Source: Candidatus Kaiserbacteria bacterium
GTDB lineage: Bacteria; Patescibacteriota; Minisyncoccia; Phycocordibacterales; UBA918
Direction of reading: 5' to 3'
DNA: 64,000 nucleotides
NCBI GenBank assembly: GCA_019634005.1
Contig: JAHQWD010000003.1
Coordinates: forward strand, 2,525-66,524
Under the pieces are notes generated by a model. It was not told the origin of the DNA and searched no databases. It worked only from the letters and a program-made list of their open reading frames with translations. Of the stretch, positions 3,342-49,395 are shown piece by piece. Position 1 is the first letter of the stretch. Each line of letters starts with the position of its first letter. Both the position numbers and the translations under genes were made by a program.

Positions 3342-3632
3342 ATGAAACGAGAGGATATAGAGCATCTGGCGACACTCGCACGTATTGATCTAAAGGATGA
3401 AGAGGTTGCGTCTTTGACGGACAGCATCACAAGTATTTTGGGGTATGTGAGTGATGTAAATGCAATTACAACCGAAGAGAAGCCTAAAGAGGTGGGTGCA
3501 CTTTATAATGTCATGCGAGAAGATGAGGAGACACATGAGCCAGGACAGTACACAGAAGCAATTTTAAATGAAGCACCGAAGCGGGAAGGACAGTACATTC
3601 AAGTTAAGAAGATACTCGGTGACAATGAATAA
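3342..3632 (+). CDS. gatC: Asp-tRNA(Asn)/Glu-tRNA(Gln) amidotransferase subunit C
   Basis: 96 aa with the typical GatC pattern (IEHLATLARIDLKDEEV...). Sits immediately upstream of and overlapping gatA. Confidence 0.85.
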   Translation: MKREDIEHLATLARIDLKDEEVASLTDSITSILGYVSDVNAITTEEKPKEVGALYNVMREDEETHEPGQYTEAILNEAPKREGQYIQVKKILGDNE

Positions 3633-5729: not shown

Positions 5730-5800
5730 AGCGGGGTAGAGGAGAGGTACCTCGGGAGGCTCATAACCTCCAGACCCCGGTTCGATTCCGGGCCCCGCAA
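5730..5800 (+). tRNA. tRNA-Met (CAT), initiator-like
   Basis: Folds as a cloverleaf with a CTCATAA anticodon loop, a TTCGATT T-loop and no encoded CCA. The sequence AGCGGGGTAGAGG...CCGGGCCCCGCAA resembles the E. coli initiator (CGCGGGG...CCCCCGCAACCA). Positions 1:72 are A:A, a mismatch as in bacterial initiators. Confidence 0.8.
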
Positions 5801-5807
5801 CACGTCA

Positions 5808-5843
5808 AGAAAACACCGATATACTCGGTGTTTTCTTGTTTTT
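5808..5843 (+). terminator. intrinsic terminator
   Basis: Hairpin AAGAAAACACCG-atatact-CGGTGTTTTCTT followed by a TTGTTTTT run. Confidence 0.7.
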
Positions 5844-5872
5844 GAGGCTTTGAGATGGTATTCTCTCTTCAC

Positions 5873-5946
5873 GTCGGCGTAGCTCAGTTGGTTAGAGCAC
5901 AACACTCATAAAGTTGGGGTCGGAGGTTCAAATCCTCCCGTCGACA
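5873..5946 (+). tRNA. tRNA-Met (CAT), elongator or tRNA-Ile2 (lysidine) type
   Basis: GTCGGCGTAGCTCAGTTGGTTAGAGC...CTCATAA...GGAGGTTCAAATCCTCCCGTCGACA. Anticodon CAT at 5907-5909. Pair 31:39 is A:A. Confidence 0.8.
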
Positions 5947-5953
5947 CTTTTAC

Positions 5954-5983
5954 AAAGACCGCTCTCTGGGCGGTCTTTGTGTA
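5954..5983 (+). terminator. intrinsic terminator
   Basis: AAAGACCGC-tctctg-GGCGGTCTTT followed by a gtgt/T-rich stretch. Confidence 0.65.
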
Positions 5984-6080
5984 TAAATAGGATATATCCA
6001 CGTACTGTTATACTACAATAGTATAAGTGCCTATATTACGTTCATTACATCAAGACTTTTTCAAAAAATGGAGCAATGAC

Positions 6081-6698
6081 ATGGCTTATGTTTTAGGGTT
6101 TTTTGCTGCAGATGGGAGTATGCTAGAGAATAATCGCGGAGCGCACTATATTGAGTTTCATATTACGGACAAAAAGATTTTAGAACAGATGAGGGAAGCT
6201 ATGGGCTCTAATCACAAGATTAAAGAGAGGAAAAGAGATGAAAAATGGAAGCCTATCTACAGACTGCAAATAGGGAGTAAAGTATTCTATGAAGATTTAC
6301 AAAAACATGGTTTTACTCAAGCAAAGAGTCATACTTTAAAATTACCCTTAGTTCCAAAGAAATATATTGCAGATTTTGTTCGTGGGTATTTTGATGGAGA
6401 TGGATGTGTTCACTTTAAACAGTATAAAGTGAGGGGTCGGAAAAAGCCAAAGTGGGTCTTCCAGACTCGTTTTACTTCAGGAAGTAAAAATTTCTTGCAG
6501 GATTTACACAATCTATTAAAAGATTACGGTGTAGCAAGAGGTTTCATTACGAAGAAAAATAGGGGGCACGAACTTGTGTTCAGTCATCGCGATGGTGTTG
6601 CATTATATCGATTAATGTATAATAATACCCCTCGTATTTATTTAAAACGTAAATACAACATCTTCAGAAAAGCAATGAAGACGCTTTATGGAGAATAA
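6081..6698 (+). CDS. LAGLIDADG-family homing endonuclease (double-motif, free-standing)
   Basis: Two LAGLIDADG motifs are present: MAYVLGFFAADGSM and ADFVRGYFDGDGCVHF. The RBS tggag lies 10 nt upstream of ATG 6081. The stop is 2 nt before tRNA-Asp exon 1. AT-rich compared with the flanking sequence. Confidence 0.85.
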   Translation: MAYVLGFFAADGSMLENNRGAHYIEFHITDKKILEQMREAMGSNHKIKERKRDEKWKPIYRLQIGSKVFYEDLQKHGFTQAKSHTLKLPLVPKKYIADFVRGYFDGDGCVHFKQYKVRGRKKPKWVFQTRFTSGSKNFLQDLHNLLKDYGVARGFITKKNRGHELVFSHRDGVALYRLMYNNTPRIYLKRKYNIFRKAMKTLYGE

Positions 6699-6700
6699 CT

Positions 6701-7015
6701 GCGGGCGTAGCTCAATTGGTTAGAGCACCCGCCTGTAGACGTGCAGCTTTCCGTCCGAAAGACGGATTGAAACTTTCCGGGATATCGGTGAAGGCTAAGT
6801 CATTGATGCAGTTAGCTTGAAAAGGTTACTGAGGAGATATGCGAATACCGAGGGAACCCATAACACAAAAACACATAGTTATGGGGCGCCGTAGAGACTA
6901 GATACCGGGATACCTAAGGATAATGAATCTATGGTAAAGATATAGTCCGTGCCATTATGAAAATAGTGGATTTCACGCACGCGGGAGGTTGAGGGTTCGA
7001 GTCCCTTCGCTCGCG
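6701..7015 (+). tRNA. tRNA-Asp (GTC) interrupted by a group I intron (exons 6701-6736 and 6978-7015)
   Basis: Joined exons read GCGGGCGTAGCTCAATTGGTTAGAGCACCCGCCTGT|CACGCGGGAGGTTGAGGGTTCGAGTCCCTTCGCTCGCG. This closely resembles E. coli tRNA-Asp (CCTGCCTGTCACGCAGG...GGTTCGAGTCC), with discriminator G. Confidence 0.8.
6737..6977 (+). mobile_element. group I self-splicing intron (IC3-like tRNA intron) in the anticodon loop of tRNA-Asp
   Basis: The core GCCGTAGAGACTAGATACCGGGATACCTAAGGATAATGAATCTATGG resembles, from memory, the Azoarcus/Anabaena tRNA intron P7/P3/P8-P9 region (GUAGAGACUAGA...CCUAAGG...CUAUGG). The IGS 5'-GUGCAG (6741-6746) can pair with exon CUGU in P1, giving U.G at the 5' splice site, and with the 3' exon CAC in P10. 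A terminal G at 6977 fits omega-G. A P9 extension hairpin carries a GAAA loop. Confidence 0.8.
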
Positions 7016-7056
7016 CAGTTAGAAAAAGAGTCCACGTTTGTGGGCTCTTTTTGTAT
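7011..7056 (+). repeat. direct repeat copy A: tRNA-Asp 3' end plus intrinsic terminator
   Basis: tcgcgcagttagaaaaagagtccacgtttgtgggctctttttgtat. The hairpin is AAAAAGAGTCCAC-gttt-GTGGGCTCTTTTT. A near-identical copy lies at 7752-7796. Confidence 0.8.
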
Positions 7057-7094
7057 AGAGAGTGGTATTGGAATTGTGTGGTATTTTTATCTGT

Positions 7095-7727
7095 ATGGAA
7101 AACAAGATTCTCTGGCACGGTACCGGTAGGTATAAATATGATTCAGAAGGAAATGTCTACGATATCTTTCAGGGAATTATTGAAGATGGAGGATTGGTCC
7201 CGCACTTAGACGAATGGGATCAAAAGCGAGGTGCTTGCTATTCCATATCAACAACTCGCTCGCGTGCATATGCTCGGCTGTATGCGAGCCTTTTCTTTCC
7301 GTCTGATAAACGTAGTTTAAAAGAATTATTTAGAAGACTTATATGGTGTCTTCGTTTCTTCCTCACGAGCAAGTATGTTGCGTGGATGGAATATACACCG
7401 TTTAGACCACACATAACTGATTTTCGGAGGAAGATTATATCTTGGGCAAAGAAATACTCATCAGATACTCGGTCTTTCATATATCTTTTTCTTTGGGGAG
7501 GTACTGACATCCCCAATAATTACCCAATACTGATATGCATAAAAGGAGATGGTATTGCTCCAACCAAGGGATCTCGTTTTGTCGATTTGCATGAAATACG
7601 TAGTGAAGAGAAAATTTCCCTAGAAGATTTTAAGTGTATTGAAGTGCCCAAAGAGCATATTTCAGAGATTCATAGCCTATTACATGTGGCAGGGTGTGAG
7701 ATTCCTGTCGTAACCTTAGACAGTTAG
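7095..7727 (+). CDS. hypothetical protein (cargo of the repeat-flanked segment)
   Basis: MENKILWHGTGRYKYDSEGNVYDIF... ~210 aa, AT-rich, with no recognisable domain. The computed ORF starts with GTG at 7062; ATG 7095 was chosen as start. Confidence 0.5.
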   Translation: MENKILWHGTGRYKYDSEGNVYDIFQGIIEDGGLVPHLDEWDQKRGACYSISTTRSRAYARLYASLFFPSDKRSLKELFRRLIWCLRFFLTSKYVAWMEYTPFRPHITDFRRKIISWAKKYSSDTRSFIYLFLWGGTDIPNNYPILICIKGDGIAPTKGSRFVDLHEIRSEEKISLEDFKCIEVPKEHISEIHSLLHVAGCEIPVVTLDS

Positions 7728-7751
7728 TGTAGCTCTAACCGCATATACCAG

Positions 7752-7796
7752 TTCGCGCATAGAAAAAAGAGTCCACGTTTGTGGGCTCTTTTTGTA
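7752..7796 (+). repeat. direct repeat copy B (terminator)
   Basis: tcgcgcatagaaaaaagagtccacgtttgtgggctctttttgtat. 42 of 44 positions are identical to copy A, including 7 nt of the tRNA-Asp acceptor 3' strand. Confidence 0.8.
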
Positions 7797-7829
7797 TTTC
7801 TGAACGGTTTTTGGTATTCTTTGGCGTAC

Positions 7830-7905
7830 GCCATTGTAGCTCAGTCGGTAGAGCGCATCCATGGTAAGGATGAGGTCCCCGGTTCAATCCCGGGCAATGG
7901 CTCCA
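7830..7905 (+). tRNA. tRNA-Thr (GGT)
   Basis: GCCATTGTAGCTCAGTCGGTAGAGCGCATCCATGGTAAGGATGAGGTCCCCGGTTCAATCCCGGGCAATGGCTCCA. The CCA is encoded and the anticodon loop is ATGGTAA. Confidence 0.9.
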
Positions 7906-15651: not shown

Positions 15652-16899
15652 ATGAACACAAGAACACACCGACAAGGTCGGACGGGTGGTCGTCCGCGTC
15701 GACGACCATACTCAGGACGACCGTCTCACGGTCGCAGAAGGCAAGGAGGCGGGAGAAAACTACCTACCTTTGATCCATCCCAGTTTATTAATAAAAACCC
15801 TGTAGAACAGAAGGAGGAGGTATATACACCAAAAAATACCTTTACCACCTTTGGACTTGATGCACGTATCGAAAAGGCGGTTGCGGATCGTGGCATTACT
15901 GTTCCATCTCCGATCCAGGATCAGGCGATTCCAGAGATTATGGAGGGGCGGGACGTTATTGGTCTCGCAGAGACAGGGACAGGAAAGACCGCTGCTTTCC
16001 TGCTGCCGCTCATCCATAAGACGCTGAAAGAACCACGTCGGCAGACTTTGATTCTCGCTCCAACACGGGAGCTTGCGCTTCAGATAGAGCAGGAACTCCG
16101 TGTGCTCTCAGGGTCACTTCATCTATACGCTACGGTGTGTGTTGGTGGTACCAACATCCAGCCACAGATACGGGGTCTCAAGCGAAAGAATCACTTTGTG
16201 ATTGGAACACCAGGGCGTGTATTGGATCTCATCAACCGTGGAAACTTACGTACTGATAAGATCACTACGGTTATCTTGGATGAGGCAGATCGTATGCTTG
16301 ATATGGGATTCATTCACGATATGCGTGCCATTCTCTCTGGGACACCGAAGGATAGGGAGACACTCTTTTTCTCTGCCACCATGACCAAAGAAGCAGAAGC
16401 ACTTGTTGATGATTTCCTCCGTAATCCTGTAACTATCTCGGTGAAGAAAAAGGAAGTGACCAACAGTATTGAACAGGACGTGGTGCCGTTTGGACATCAT
16501 AATAAGTTTGAGACACTTCTCAATCTTCTCGAAGATGAGTCGCTTCGTCGTGTCATCATCTTCGGTGCTATGAAGCACAGTGTCGAGAAGCTTGCGAAAG
16601 AACTTTCTCGTGCGGGTATTGTTGCAGAGAGTATCCACGGGAATAAGAGCCACGGACAGCGACAGCGTTCGCTTGCGAAGTTCAAGAGTGGGAATGCGCG
16701 GATACTGGTTGCAACAGATGTTGCCGCGCGTGGTATTCACGTGGACAATGTATCGCATGTGATCAATTACGATCTCCCTGGAACCTTTGAAGACTACGTG
16801 CATCGTATTGGACGTACGGGACGAGGTACAAAACGAGGGAAGGCACTTACCTTTGTGCCAGAGAAGTCTGTATCAAGGTTGAAAAATACTGGAAAATAG
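15652..16899 (+). CDS. DEAD-box ATP-dependent RNA helicase with Arg/Gly-rich N-terminal extension
   Basis: Q motif, AETGTGKTAAF (motif I), DEAD (LDEADRM), SAT and HRIGRTGRG. A ~45-aa N-terminal R/G-rich tail is present (RQGRTGGRPRRRPYSGRPSHGRRRQGGGRK). Confidence 0.9.
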   Translation: MNTRTHRQGRTGGRPRRRPYSGRPSHGRRRQGGGRKLPTFDPSQFINKNPVEQKEEVYTPKNTFTTFGLDARIEKAVADRGITVPSPIQDQAIPEIMEGRDVIGLAETGTGKTAAFLLPLIHKTLKEPRRQTLILAPTRELALQIEQELRVLSGSLHLYATVCVGGTNIQPQIRGLKRKNHFVIGTPGRVLDLINRGNLRTDKITTVILDEADRMLDMGFIHDMRAILSGTPKDRETLFFSATMTKEAEALVDDFLRNPVTISVKKKEVTNSIEQDVVPFGHHNKFETLLNLLEDESLRRVIIFGAMKHSVEKLAKELSRAGIVAESIHGNKSHGQRQRSLAKFKSGNARILVATDVAARGIHVDNVSHVINYDLPGTFEDYVHRIGRTGRGTKRGKALTFVPEKSVSRLKNTGK

Positions 16900-16937: not shown

Positions 16938-17008
16938 TGCCGGATCGTCTAATGGTAGGACCGCGGTTTCTGGTACCGTTAATCGGGGTTCGAGTCCCTG
17001 TCCGGCAG
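16938..17008 (+). tRNA. tRNA-Gln (CTG)
   Basis: TGCCGGATCGTCTAATGGTAGGACCGCGGTTTCTGGTACCGTTAATCGGGGTTCGAGTCCCTGTCCGGCAG. It has U1:A72 as in E. coli tRNA-Gln. The anticodon loop is TTCTGGT. Confidence 0.85.
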
Positions 17009-17130
17009 CTAGCGATTTTAACCCTATATATAAAGATGGATTAGTTCGAATCCCGTGTCACCTCCTTAATAAAAAATGGCCCATCCAAACTAATGTAAGG
17101 ATAGGCCATTGGTCTTCTGGCTGGAGCGGG

Positions 17131-17412
17131 TTAGCGCTTCCAGATCACCGAGCAGGGGTTTGCCGAACGAGCTTCGTGGCGGAGACATTTCTCAATAGCC
17201 GTGATTTTCTTGGCACCACGGACGGTGGTGTTCATGAGGTCGGCGTAGAGGACTGCGGCCTCTTGGTCGTGCTGGAACGCTTCGGCTGCCAGATGGCGGT
17301 CGCCATCGGAATAGTTGAAGTATAGGTTCGTTGCACTCGGAAGGGCGGGGCTCGCAAGGGCGCCGAAGCTCAGAGCGGTTGCTGCGGTAGCAATCATCAG
17401 AATTTTTTTCAT
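17131..17412 (-). CDS. small secreted protein (signal peptide), GC-rich
   Basis: MKKILMIATAATALSFGALASPALP... RBS ggagag. GC is ~58%. Confidence 0.55.
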   Translation of the reverse strand: MKKILMIATAATALSFGALASPALPSATNLYFNYSDGDRHLAAEAFQHDQEAAVLYADLMNTTVRGAKKITAIEKCLRHEARSANPCSVIWKR

Positions 17413-17586
17413 CAGGAACTCTCCATAGTTTGTGCGGTCTCAATGACTGCACTTCTTTTGTATTATACCAAATATAAATATTCTGTCAAGTATTCTACAC
17501 CAAATTTCTAATTTCATCCCACACAGCCAGCCTAAAGAGACGACTAAAATGGCTCAGATAAAGGTTTTTTTGTTCGAAAGTGCACT

Positions 17587-48151: not shown

Positions 48152-48634
48152 ATGATTCGTCTTAAAACACTCCTTATTTTTGTCGCTGTTATCGTAGGTG
48201 TCTGGTTTACCTATGAACAGACAGTAGGGAAACCGCTCGGTACTTTTTTTAGTGTTCCAACTCATACGATGCGTGTCGGGAATGTACCAATGCGTGTGGA
48301 GATTGCACAGACTGAAGCAGAGCGTATACAAGGACTCTCTGACAGGGAATCTCTTGGAGAGGTCAGTGGACTGTTCTTTGTCTTCCCTCAAGCGGATTAC
48401 CACGGGGTCTGGATGAAAGATATGGAGTTTGCTATAGATGTTATCTGGATTAGTGAGGATCTAAAGGTGGTGGATATCTCACGTAATTTGCTACCACAGA
48501 GTTATCCAAAAATATTTAGACCATCTTCTCCTGCAAAATATGCGGTAGAGACAGAAGTACTCTTTACAGAGACGTTTGGTATAAAAATAGGCGACACGGT
48601 AGTGTTGCCAAGAGTGGTGGGAGAGGAGATATAA
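48152..48634 (+). CDS. DUF192 family protein
   Basis: N-terminal TM helix. Pattern MRVEIAQTEAERIQGLSDRESL...GLFFVFP...MKDMEFAIDVIWIS matches COG1430. Confidence 0.6.
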   Translation: MIRLKTLLIFVAVIVGVWFTYEQTVGKPLGTFFSVPTHTMRVGNVPMRVEIAQTEAERIQGLSDRESLGEVSGLFFVFPQADYHGVWMKDMEFAIDVIWISEDLKVVDISRNLLPQSYPKIFRPSSPAKYAVETEVLFTETFGIKIGDTVVLPRVVGEEI

Positions 48635-48695
48635 AAAAAGACGAGTGAAGCAGTGCTTTCTCGCTTTTCAAAAAAATGTACAAACAAAAATTGGA

Positions 48696-48737
48696 GGATG
48701 TCCCTCCCCAAGCATCCTTGAGGGATGTGGGGAGGGT
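48696..48737 (-). terminator. intrinsic terminator for a minus-strand transcript
   Basis: On the minus strand: CCCTCCCCACATCCC-tcaa-GGATGCTTGGGGAGGG, followed by acatcctccaaTTTTTgTTTgtacaTTTTTTT. Confidence 0.65.
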
Positions 48738-48754
48738 ACACCGGAGACGGCTGG

Positions 48755-48901
48755 TCAGTCAGCGCCGATTGCGTCCTGGTTGGCAATTGCAATATGGGCG
48801 GAGCCGACACCCCCGGAGTCGGTCAGCTGGATCGCGGCGGTTTTCGTGTCGAGGGCAATAGCGGTCAGAGCAACTTTGCTCGGCGGTGCGTGTGTACGCA
48901 T
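48755..48901 (-). CDS. candidate small protein (48 aa; up to 66 aa if started at 48955) in a 60%-GC patch; could instead be a non-coding RNA
   Basis: MRTHAPPSKVALTAIALDTKTAAIQLTDSGGVGSAHIAIANQDAIGAD. GGAG RBS 8 nt upstream of ATG 48901. Bracketed by a consensus promoter and a terminator on the same strand. Confidence 0.35.
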   Translation of the reverse strand: MRTHAPPSKVALTAIALDTKTAAIQLTDSGGVGSAHIAIANQDAIGAD

Positions 48902-48978
48902 GGTATTTCTCCATTGTTGACAGATCATCCGGGACACTTTGTCCCAGAACCCCACTACAGTATCGGTGAGGCTCTGCT

Positions 48979-49006
48979 ATTCTATAATACTCCAAGATAT
49001 TGTCAA
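48979..49006 (-). promoter_or_regulatory. sigma70-type promoter on minus strand (TTGACA-16-TAGAAT)
   Basis: Minus-strand reading ttgacaatatcttggagtattatagaat. The -35 box is plus 49001-49006 and the -10 box is plus 48979-48984. Confidence 0.6.
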
Positions 49007-49027
49007 CCTCCTAAAACTGTGTATAAT
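49000..49027 (+). promoter_or_regulatory. rnpB promoter (TTGTCA-16-TATAAT), -35 overlapping the divergent minus-strand -35
   Basis: Plus strand ttgtca (49000-49005), 16-nt spacer, tataat (49022-49027). Confidence 0.55.
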
Positions 49028-49032
49028 TATGG

Positions 49033-49355
49033 AGTCAGATAGTCGCTAAATACCTTGGTATTTAGAGGAAAGTCCGGACACGCCCCAGTATATGGGAGCA
49101 GGGTAGCGGGTAACACCCGTCTAAGGTAACTTACGAGGTGCGAGCAGAGACGCCCATATTCGAAAGATGCGGGATTCCCTCTGGGAATAGCTCTCATGGC
49201 AATATGAGAGGTGAAACGGCTAAATCCTTACCTGCGTGCAAGACCGTATTCTCGCGTTATGTGCACAGCTGTGTACGCGAGTCTGAGTCGCATGAGGAGT
49301 GCGGTAACGTACTTCCTAGGTAGATGACTATCCACGACAGAATCCGGCTTATCGA
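49033..49355 (+). ncRNA. rnpB: RNase P RNA (bacterial type A)
   Basis: GAGGAAAGTCCGGACAC (P4 5' strand), GGTGAAACGGC and, near the 3' end, GATGACTATCCACGACAGAATCCGGCTTATCG (cf. E. coli GAATGACTGTCCACGACAGAACCCGGCTTATCGG). Ends are approximate, +/-20 nt. Confidence 0.85.
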
Positions 49356-49395
49356 CACACAACAGAGCGCCTTCGGGCGCTCTGTTGTGTTACTA
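49356..49395 (+). terminator. intrinsic terminator after rnpB
   Basis: ACACAACAGAGCGCC-ttcg-GGCGCTCTGTTGTGT, a 15-bp stem. Confidence 0.65.

Follow-up and report, generated by a model that had tools for sequence, protein, structure and literature searches.

A small transcription unit is predicted on the minus strand directly upstream of rnpB, the gene for RNase P RNA, in a 64,000-nucleotide (nt) stretch of a Candidatus Kaiserbacteria genome (GenBank assembly GCA_019634005.1, contig JAHQWD010000003.1, positions 2,525 to 66,524); this whole stretch is referred to below as the window, and its own numbering is used throughout. The unit comprises a near-consensus promoter, an open reading frame (ORF) of 48 codons preceded by a Shine–Dalgarno (SD) core, and one or two predicted intrinsic terminators, and it lies between rnpB and a convergent DUF192 gene. 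We give about an even chance to the reading, drawn from sequence comparison, that the unit is a leadered, translated, clade-restricted orphan microprotein gene in which the openness of the frame, the start signals, and the composition are maintained and the amino acid sequence is not, and whose promoter probably competes with that of rnpB.

A divergent promoter pair at rnpB

The minus-strand promoter consists of a −35 hexamer TTGACA (49001–49006) and a −10 hexamer TAGAAT (48979–48984) with a 16-nt spacer. It matches the sigma-70 consensus at 11 of 12 positions, in agreement with the near-consensus promoter that an earlier reading of the letters alone (the original prediction) had placed at 49006–48979. 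Across both strands of the 64 kb, five sites match at 11 or more of the 12 positions, compared with 1.0 expected from Markov simulations; two of these five are the promoter of the unit and the divergent, plus-strand promoter of rnpB (TTGTCA-16-TATAAT, 49000–49027). The rnpB gene itself (49027–49366, plus strand) is a bacterial class A RNase P RNA with a full-length match to RF00010 (131 bits).

The −35 elements of the two promoters overlap back to back, as originally described, and are formed by the same base pairs: the rnpB hexamer lies at 49000–49005 and that of the unit at 49001–49006 on the opposite strand, as mirror readings of TTGTCAA (TTGTCAA/TTGACAA). This arrangement is conserved in relatives. 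The −10 elements are separate (48979–48984 for the unit, 49022–49027 for rnpB), and the inferred transcription starts lie approximately 60 base pairs (bp) apart. Since two sigma factors should be unable to read one hexamer together, binding at the two promoters should be mutually exclusive. Coupled or competing transcription of the unit and rnpB is plausible on these grounds, and the two promoters probably compete through their common −35 base pairs.

Restriction of the unit to a small clade

The clade considered here consists of the window and three further lineages: L003 (identical to L004, L005, L006, and L010), L007, and L008 (identical to L009 and L011). All three share the gene order cupin, EamA, hypothetical protein, DUF192, gap, rnpB, and TPR protein, with approximately 770–860 nt between the DUF192 and TPR genes and no gene called between DUF192 and rnpB. 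Their proteins are 76–87% identical to those of the window, and fourfold degenerate sites are 37–40% identical, which is near saturation. The next relatives are L015–L018, with a TPR protein 50–53% identical, and L012, L014, and L002, with a DUF192 protein 38–48% identical. No relatives of intermediate divergence were found in the collections, and copies within a lineage were 100% identical. A contig scan with DUF192 returned one distant locus only, and an rnpB-anchored pattern search of metagenomes recovered no lineages beyond those above.

The order DUF192, rnpB, TPR recurs in six of the seven outgroups, continuing with MurJ and LepA in L015–L018; L014, a short contig, shows DUF192 and rnpB only. 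This DUF192–rnpB–TPR–MurJ–LepA synteny is conserved across Parcubacteria, and the spacing between DUF192 and rnpB in the seven outgroups is only 29–168 nt. The unit, at approximately 340–400 nt, is absent from these short gaps and is therefore an innovation of one small clade. It was inserted precisely at the junction of the DUF192 stop codon and the −35 element that rnpB already had.

An rnpB promoter is readable in the gap of five of the seven outgroups (L012 and L015–L018; e.g., TTGCCA-16-TATACT), and in each of them the −35 element begins with TTGC (TTGCCA, TTGCTA, TTGCGA, TTGCGT, and TTGCAA). All four clade members carrying the divergent unit have TTGTCA at this position. The change from TTGC to TTGT leaves the rnpB element at five of six matches and takes the opposite strand from TTGGCA at best to a perfect TTGACA, a clade-specific substitution that is compatible with selection for the minus-strand promoter.

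Two outgroups have rnpB genes that are considerably longer or more diverged than usual. That of L017 (1706–2268) spans 563 nt, compared with approximately 340 nt for the other form, and contains an insertion of approximately 200 nt. That of L014 (763–1137) scores only 44 bits and contains an inserted hairpin that draws a spurious microRNA match.

Structure of the unit

The unit coincides with a patch of elevated GC content, as predicted (approximately 60%): the highest 150-nt GC patch of the window lies at 48681–48921 (0.64 vs. a mean of 0.463 and a standard deviation of 0.046, approximately 3.8 standard deviations above the mean), and 48700–48849 is 63% GC. The predicted 5′ leader, of approximately 71 nt (48902–48972, minus strand, with transcription inferred to start near 48972), is predicted to fold into two hairpins (48972–48949 and 48948–48928). 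It holds the SD core GGAG at 48912–48909, 7 nt 5′ of the ATG at 48901. The ORF of 48 codons with its TGA stop (MRTHAPPSKVALTAIALDTKTAAIQLTDSGGVGSAHIAIANQDAIGAD; 48755–48901, minus strand, TGA at 48757–48755) is 61% GC, with C at 46% of third codon positions, and the peptide is rich in small residues and acidic to neutral. The start codon, the GGAG, and the peptide quoted in the original prediction were all recovered exactly.

A longer, 66-residue version had also been proposed from an ATG at 48955. The frame is indeed open from this position, though the codon there is GTG and not ATG; this start was rejected, as it has no SD motif, adds an N-terminal extension rich in Trp, Cys, and Arg, and overlaps the leader hairpins. 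Plus-strand ORFs of 105 and 91 residues were likewise rejected: they overlap the promoter and start of rnpB, are uncalled in relatives, and have poor codon usage scores. The 105-residue ORF (48725–49042, plus strand) is an antisense singleton called by public gene sets (NCBI-derived, Logan). It reaches into the beginning of rnpB and is very probably spurious.

Downstream of the ORF, the first predicted terminator (48670–48742, minus strand) combines a long G/C-rich hairpin (48742–48697) with an overlapping small hairpin and T-runs. The sequence TTTTTGTTTGTACATTTTTTT lies at 48690–48670, downstream of the long hairpin; the U-run begins approximately 6 nt past the long stem, and the smaller alternative hairpin, GGAGG-GACAT-CCTCC, abuts it directly. 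A G/C-rich hairpin followed by a U-tract is thus present, with equivalent elements in relatives, and the strong terminator of the original prediction is confirmed in both its hairpin and its T-runs. A second hairpin (48668–48637, within an element at 48633–48668) is predicted right after the DUF192 stop codon, with A-runs and T-runs on its sides; it looks like a bidirectional terminator common to DUF192 on the plus strand and the small unit on the minus strand.

Conservation within the clade

Similarity between the window and its relatives in blastn covers rnpB and its promoter and ends at the minus-strand −10 element. The bodies of the units have no significant local DNA similarity between any pair of lineages, with the exception of a 13-mer shared by L003 and L007 near the terminator; given the saturation of neutral sites, these unalignable bodies have the look of unconstrained sequence. 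The promoter behaves differently from its own spacer, which varies between lineages while the hexamers stay: the minus-strand −35 is invariant in all four, and the −10 reads TAGAAT, TAGTAT, TAGAAT, and TAGAAT, always at 16-nt spacing. With −35 and −10 hexamers whose spacing falls in the 16–18 nt range of sigma-70-type promoters and that are conserved in relatives, the unit has a putative promoter of this type.

Start signals are also retained. The window, L003, and L007 each carry an SD core 6–8 nt before an ATG, opening ORFs of 48, 44, and 50 codons, respectively, at a similar distance from the promoter. The ORF segments are 59–61% GC, with 60-nt peaks of 0.68–0.72, in genomes of approximately 46% GC. 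Hairpins abut the DUF192 stop codon in L003, L007, and L008, as in the window, and the L008 terminator lies earlier than in the other lineages. The second leader hairpin (48948–48928) has a counterpart in L007 only.

Several short matches occur at equivalent positions of the otherwise dissimilar bodies. In body coordinates, the SD region is at 58 (window) and 61 (L007), the stretch GG.GGTG.CGGC.CC at 164 (window) and 135 (L003), and TGTTTCAACCCCT at 283 (L003) and 300 (L007); CGGC and GCTGA columns are common to all four bodies. These small collinear matches suggest that the four bodies derive from one ancestor and are not unrelated cassettes.

The L008 locus includes an extra mini-unit between its first terminator and DUF192 (3540–3610, minus strand), composed of a strong SD sequence (AAGGAG), an 18-codon Arg-rich ORF (MISKKNFGRRPIFRRPPN), and a G/C-rich hairpin with a T-run at the DUF192 stop codon.

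Coding potential of the unit

For the window taken alone, shuffles produce an SD-led ATG ORF with 44 or more codons at P of approximately 0.05, so that its presence is only slightly improbable; its significance comes from the fact that relatives carry it too. Dinucleotide shuffles give a chance probability of 0.024–0.052 per lineage, and the occurrence of such an ORF in three of the four lineages has a probability of approximately 2e-4, if the lineages are independent. A start signal and open frame are thus kept in three of four lineages. In these three, the peptides also share a composition. Each contains a single Arg, compared with 9–13% expected from nucleotide composition (P = 0.004, 0.057, and 0.005 for the window, L003, and L007), and Ala, Thr, Ser, Pro, and Gly are enriched in the ORF frame (P = 0.096, 0.013, and 0.010), in tests that were selected post hoc with the peptides already seen, which counts against them. 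A codon model trained on the genes of the window scores its ORF at 0.167 bits per codon, above the 95th percentile of spurious ORFs (0.019; mean −0.26 ± 0.19) and within approximately one standard deviation of real 48-codon gene chunks (0.32 ± 0.16). The original prediction had made its case depend on conservation of the ORF in related genomes; its presence and composition are kept there, and its amino acid sequence is not.

A number of further observations weigh against a translated microprotein gene. The codon scores of the L003 and L007 ORFs are borderline (−0.02 and −0.05), and any ATG ORF of at least 44 codons, irrespective of an SD core, arises readily in GC-rich shuffles (P = 0.27–0.39). 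L008 keeps the promoter and an equivalent GC-rich stretch with only a 28-codon ATG ORF that has no SD core. The three longer peptides are not significantly similar (alignment z of 2.3, 0.5, and 1.0) and have no conserved residue, and since the neighboring proteins are 76–87% identical, there is no sign of purifying selection on the peptide sequence. An exhaustive phmmer search over 1.84 billion cluster representatives found no homologue of the peptide, and single-sequence AlphaFold2 modeling returned no confident fold, with a predicted local distance difference test score of 61 and a tentative beta-hairpin. Finally, SD cores are rare before ordinary genes of this genome (3 of 56, as detailed below), so an SD function is assumed for the GGAG.

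The most probable of the alternatives, which we nonetheless regard as unlikely, is that the region is an insulator or spacer that yields no product, in which the terminators part DUF192 transcription from rnpB and the ORF is an accident of GC-rich sequence. The quasi-palindromic −35 of rnpB would then pair by chance with an upstream −10-like hexamer, and the conserved ATTCTA could serve rnpB, for example as an UP-like element at approximately −50 to −55. In keeping with this, the body evolves like neutral DNA, its divergence between lineages being matched by that of the fourfold sites; L008 keeps the hexamers with no long ORF; a minus-strand −35 is an automatic consequence of TTGTCAA; and long ORFs are frequent in the GC-rich shuffles. 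However, after saturation, a segment at 59–61% GC with peaks of 0.68–0.72 would be unexpected in a 46% GC genome, as would the joint presence of SD, ATG, and ORF in three of four lineages and an Arg-poor composition specific to the frame. Insulation would also leave approximately 350 extra nt superfluous, as the seven outgroups need only their 29–168 nt, and the TTGC to TTGT change of the clade improves the minus-strand promoter only.

Structured RNA and searches for known families

The original prediction had raised a structured small RNA (sRNA) as its own alternative. Such a transcript, of approximately 230–310 nt, could be non-coding or dual-function and act by base pairing or protein binding, with the ORF incidental or secondary; we consider this doubtful. 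In each of the four lineages, L008 with its lack of a long ORF among them, a short predicted transcript is bracketed by a strong promoter and a terminator, and a leader hairpin is common to the window and L007. The GC-rich patch is distinct from the genome, and searches for structured RNAs in AT-rich genomes have exploited this kind of contrast. Whole transcripts do fold better than shuffles (z of −3.1 to −4.7), but this excess is due entirely to the terminators: leader and ORF without them give z-scores of −0.25, +0.79, −0.93, and −0.13 in the four lineages, like coding controls. RNAalifold on the four sequences, which are near-unalignable and give low power, returned −1.67 kcal/mol, no consensus structure, and zero covarying pairs. 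No conserved single-stranded seed is visible, and the composition signal tracks the reading frame.

Family searches likewise gave the sRNA no support. With Rfam 15 at the gathering threshold, the whole window yielded only rnpB, transfer RNAs (tRNAs), and a group I intron, none of them in the element; at E up to 10, the stretch 48500–49100 gave only a chance microRNA match (E = 7.4); and in the relatives no match fell within the element at the gathering threshold or at E up to 1. An ARAGORN search for transfer-messenger RNA (tmRNA) and tRNA was also empty in the element. The Rfam scan that had been proposed as a check has thus been run, and no 6S RNA, tmRNA, signal recognition particle RNA, or riboswitch match was found there. 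Taken with the folding results, these searches do not bear out the structured sRNA, and the lack of a signal at the RNA level speaks for the coding reading.

Protein searches with the 48-residue peptide gave no match in Pfam or NCBIfam, in PDB sequences, in a word-indexed protein database, or, by tblastn, in metagenome and viral contigs. The exact 48- and 66-residue sequences are absent from a collection of 15 billion proteins, and the ORF is unannotated in public protein sets. With no RNA or protein family matched, the description of a discrete minus-strand unit that resembles nothing recognizable stands.

Specific functional classes were considered and rejected. A ribosomally synthesized and post-translationally modified peptide (RiPP) precursor is not indicated: a scan of the neighborhood found no modifying enzyme or transporter among the neighbors, and the peptide has no Pfam or NCBIfam match. 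For a graspetide, a kind of RiPP, an ATP-grasp gene occurs only in L008, 3 kb away and in the lineage lacking a long ORF, and is missing near the window unit. Alternative hairpins of the type seen in thr/ilv attenuator leader peptides are present (48742–48693), but no gene follows in the same orientation; DUF192, which comes next, is convergent and lies behind the second terminator, leaving nothing to regulate. A type I toxin was rejected, as the peptide has no hydrophobic stretch and no overlapping antisense unit was found.

Possible mobility of the unit and a second small unit at 17 kb

It is very unlikely that the locus is a hot spot to which separate acquisitions, or replacement by horizontal transfer, brought non-homologous GC-rich mini-cassettes with the peptides as unrelated cargo: the bodies are unalignable and differ in length, GC content and codon usage are unlike the rest of the genome, and a block elsewhere in the window (described below) hints at mobility, but the small collinear matches fall at equivalent body positions, neutral-site saturation already accounts for the unalignable bodies, and no integrase, transposase, or repeat lies nearby, nor does any plasmid, phage, or viral contig match. 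Specifically, searches of the unit DNA against plasmids and phages were negative, as was the tblastn search of viral contigs with the peptide, the window holds no second copy or repeat of the unit, and no integrase or transposase was found among the flanking genes scanned with Pfam (38.6–55.9 kb). The marks of an integron-like or mobile cassette, namely an integrase or transposase, repeats, and other copies, were thus not observed. The neighboring genes encode Cpn60, LemA, an M48 peptidase, the ribonucleotide reductase small subunit, cupin, EamA, DUF192, TPR protein, MurJ, LepA, and DivIC.

A second self-contained small unit is predicted on the minus strand at 17090–17489, again with a promoter, an SD-led ORF, and a hairpin and T-run terminator. 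Its promoter, at 17489 (minus strand), is the only one in the window to match at 12 of 12 positions (TTGACA-16-TATAAT, with a preceding TGG). The ORF (17412–17131, minus strand) encodes 93 residues with a signal peptide, is 57% GC, and has C at 45% of third positions. Its product, annotated as hypothetical protein MBX2866637.1, gave no match in Pfam or NCBIfam. The surrounding 17111–17401 is the second most GC-rich patch of the window. The sequence ATGGAGA-7 nt-ATG is identical in the 48-codon and 93-residue ORFs, and both have C at 45–46% of third codon positions, compared with 13–25% in 11 other genes including the chaperonin. A codon bias of highly expressed genes was therefore rejected as the explanation, since the preference for C-ending codons is not shared by the chaperonin gene (Cpn60). 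Both units adjoin stable-RNA genes, rnpB in one case and tRNA-Gln (16938–17009) in the other. That an annotated gene of the window carries such a similar set of signals supports the reading of the 48-codon ORF as a gene.

The 93-residue gene and tRNA-Gln lie in a 598-nt block (window 17531–16934) that is 97% identical to positions 1382–1979 of L019, a contig from JGI (Joint Genome Institute; Ga0671561_0196), with 92 of 93 residues of the protein identical. The genes on its two sides in L019 encode a DnaX-like ATPase and a class II aminoacyl-tRNA synthetase; those in the window are a large Arg-rich ORF ending at 16899, which resembles a DEAD-box helicase by appearance, and a 305-residue ORF. 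The different flanks could reflect horizontal movement or rearrangement in a close strain.

Start signals elsewhere in the window differ from those of the two small units. With the start codon taken as the first ATG, so that the counts are rough, an SD core lies 5–12 nt upstream in only 3 of 56 ORFs of at least 120 residues, compared with 10% expected at random positions. A −10-like hexamer lies 4–16 nt before the ATG in 15 of the 56, compared with 2% expected at random (e.g., 46842, 48152, and 57642 [−]). These counts suggest that leaderless messenger RNAs may be widespread in this genome. The two small units stand apart from the rest of the genome because of their expression signals together with their composition.

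A broader proposal joins several of these features: a new, highly expressed microprotein gene would have been built or inserted against the rnpB promoter in a largely leaderless, SD-poor lineage of the Candidate Phyla Radiation (CPR) and be selected only for translation and bulk composition; its perfect, mirror-image −35 would make it an integral competitor or coupler by which the level of RNase P RNA is set; and, with the unit at 17.1–17.5 kb, it would perhaps belong to a class of portable, GC-rich, SD-led mini-genes beside stable-RNA genes. As a whole, this combination seems improbable to us.

Among other features of the window, a group I intron match (6711–6969, plus strand) scores 50.2 bits against a gathering score of 50 and lies among tRNA genes (5730–7905). 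No ribosomal RNA genes were reported in the 64 kb by Rfam or ARAGORN.

Discussion

The preferred reading, that of a translated microprotein gene, can be set out as a sequence of events. An independent transcription unit would have arisen in a small Kaiserbacteria clade, between the DUF192 gene and the existing rnpB promoter. Its product would be an orphan microprotein of 48 residues here and 44–50 in relatives, and one or two intrinsic terminators would halt transcription before an antisense run into DUF192. Selection would keep the ORF open, SD-led, poor in Arg, and enriched for the small residues Ala, Thr, Ser, Pro, and Gly, leaving the amino acid sequence unconstrained. Because composition and not sequence is kept, the product probably acts by bulk or disordered properties, or else translation itself matters. 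With both −35 elements on the same base pairs, only one RNA polymerase could engage the region at a time, which would link expression of the peptide unit to that of RNase P RNA.

If expressed in this way, the unit would be an example of a microprotein gene, confined to one lineage, that retains its open frame and composition under free drift of its sequence, and would bear on the persistence of orphan genes in the minimal, compact genomes of CPR bacteria. A promoter pair that shares a −35 element and not a −10 would add to what is currently described for bidirectional promoters in bacteria, and the production of an essential ribozyme RNA would be tied to that of a neighboring unit. The finding changes no major open question. 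It does hold a lesson for annotation, as public calls miss the 48-codon ORF and record the antisense 105-residue ORF instead.

Among known systems, the closest in promoter architecture are bidirectional promoters, in which symmetry of core elements lets RNA polymerase bind either way, with occupancy in one orientation precluding the opposite one (Warman et al., bioRxiv 10.1101/2020.01.31.928960; NAR 2026, PMC12825309). Those of E. coli have a common −10 and divergent starts 18 bp apart (or 10 or 23 bp), and competition at them is substantial only when a promoter is strong (PMC12825309). The rnpB pair resembles them in its symmetric core element, and both of its promoters are near consensus. 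However, the element in common here is the −35, the −10 elements are separate, and approximately 60 bp lie between the predicted starts, so the pair falls outside this class.

In classical back-to-back and supercoiling-coupled divergent promoter pairs, the upstream promoter regions overlap. The same is true here, and one of the two promoters, with its 16-nt spacer, is of the stable-RNA type. In contrast to those pairs, the other partner is a tiny orphan ORF, there is no regulator gene or operator, and coupling is predicted from the arrangement. A further parallel comes from peptide-encoding dual-function sRNAs (e.g., RNAIII/hld, SgrS/SgrT, and SR1/SR1P): like them, the unit would be transcribed on its own as a short RNA, from a dedicated promoter to a dedicated terminator, and would carry a small ORF, but unlike them it has no conserved RNA structure or seed that we could find.

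The gene-level comparison is with lineage-restricted (ORFan) and candidate de novo small-protein genes of bacteria (review, PMC12315717). The unit shares with these a lack of homologues outside a narrow clade, a short GC-rich ORF, a poorly structured prediction, rapid divergence, and absence from the outgroup site. Because its codon usage is foreign to the genome, transfer and birth in place are inseparable for this unit. Where it departs from such genes is in having an unusually canonical promoter, SD sequence, and terminators for a supposedly young gene.

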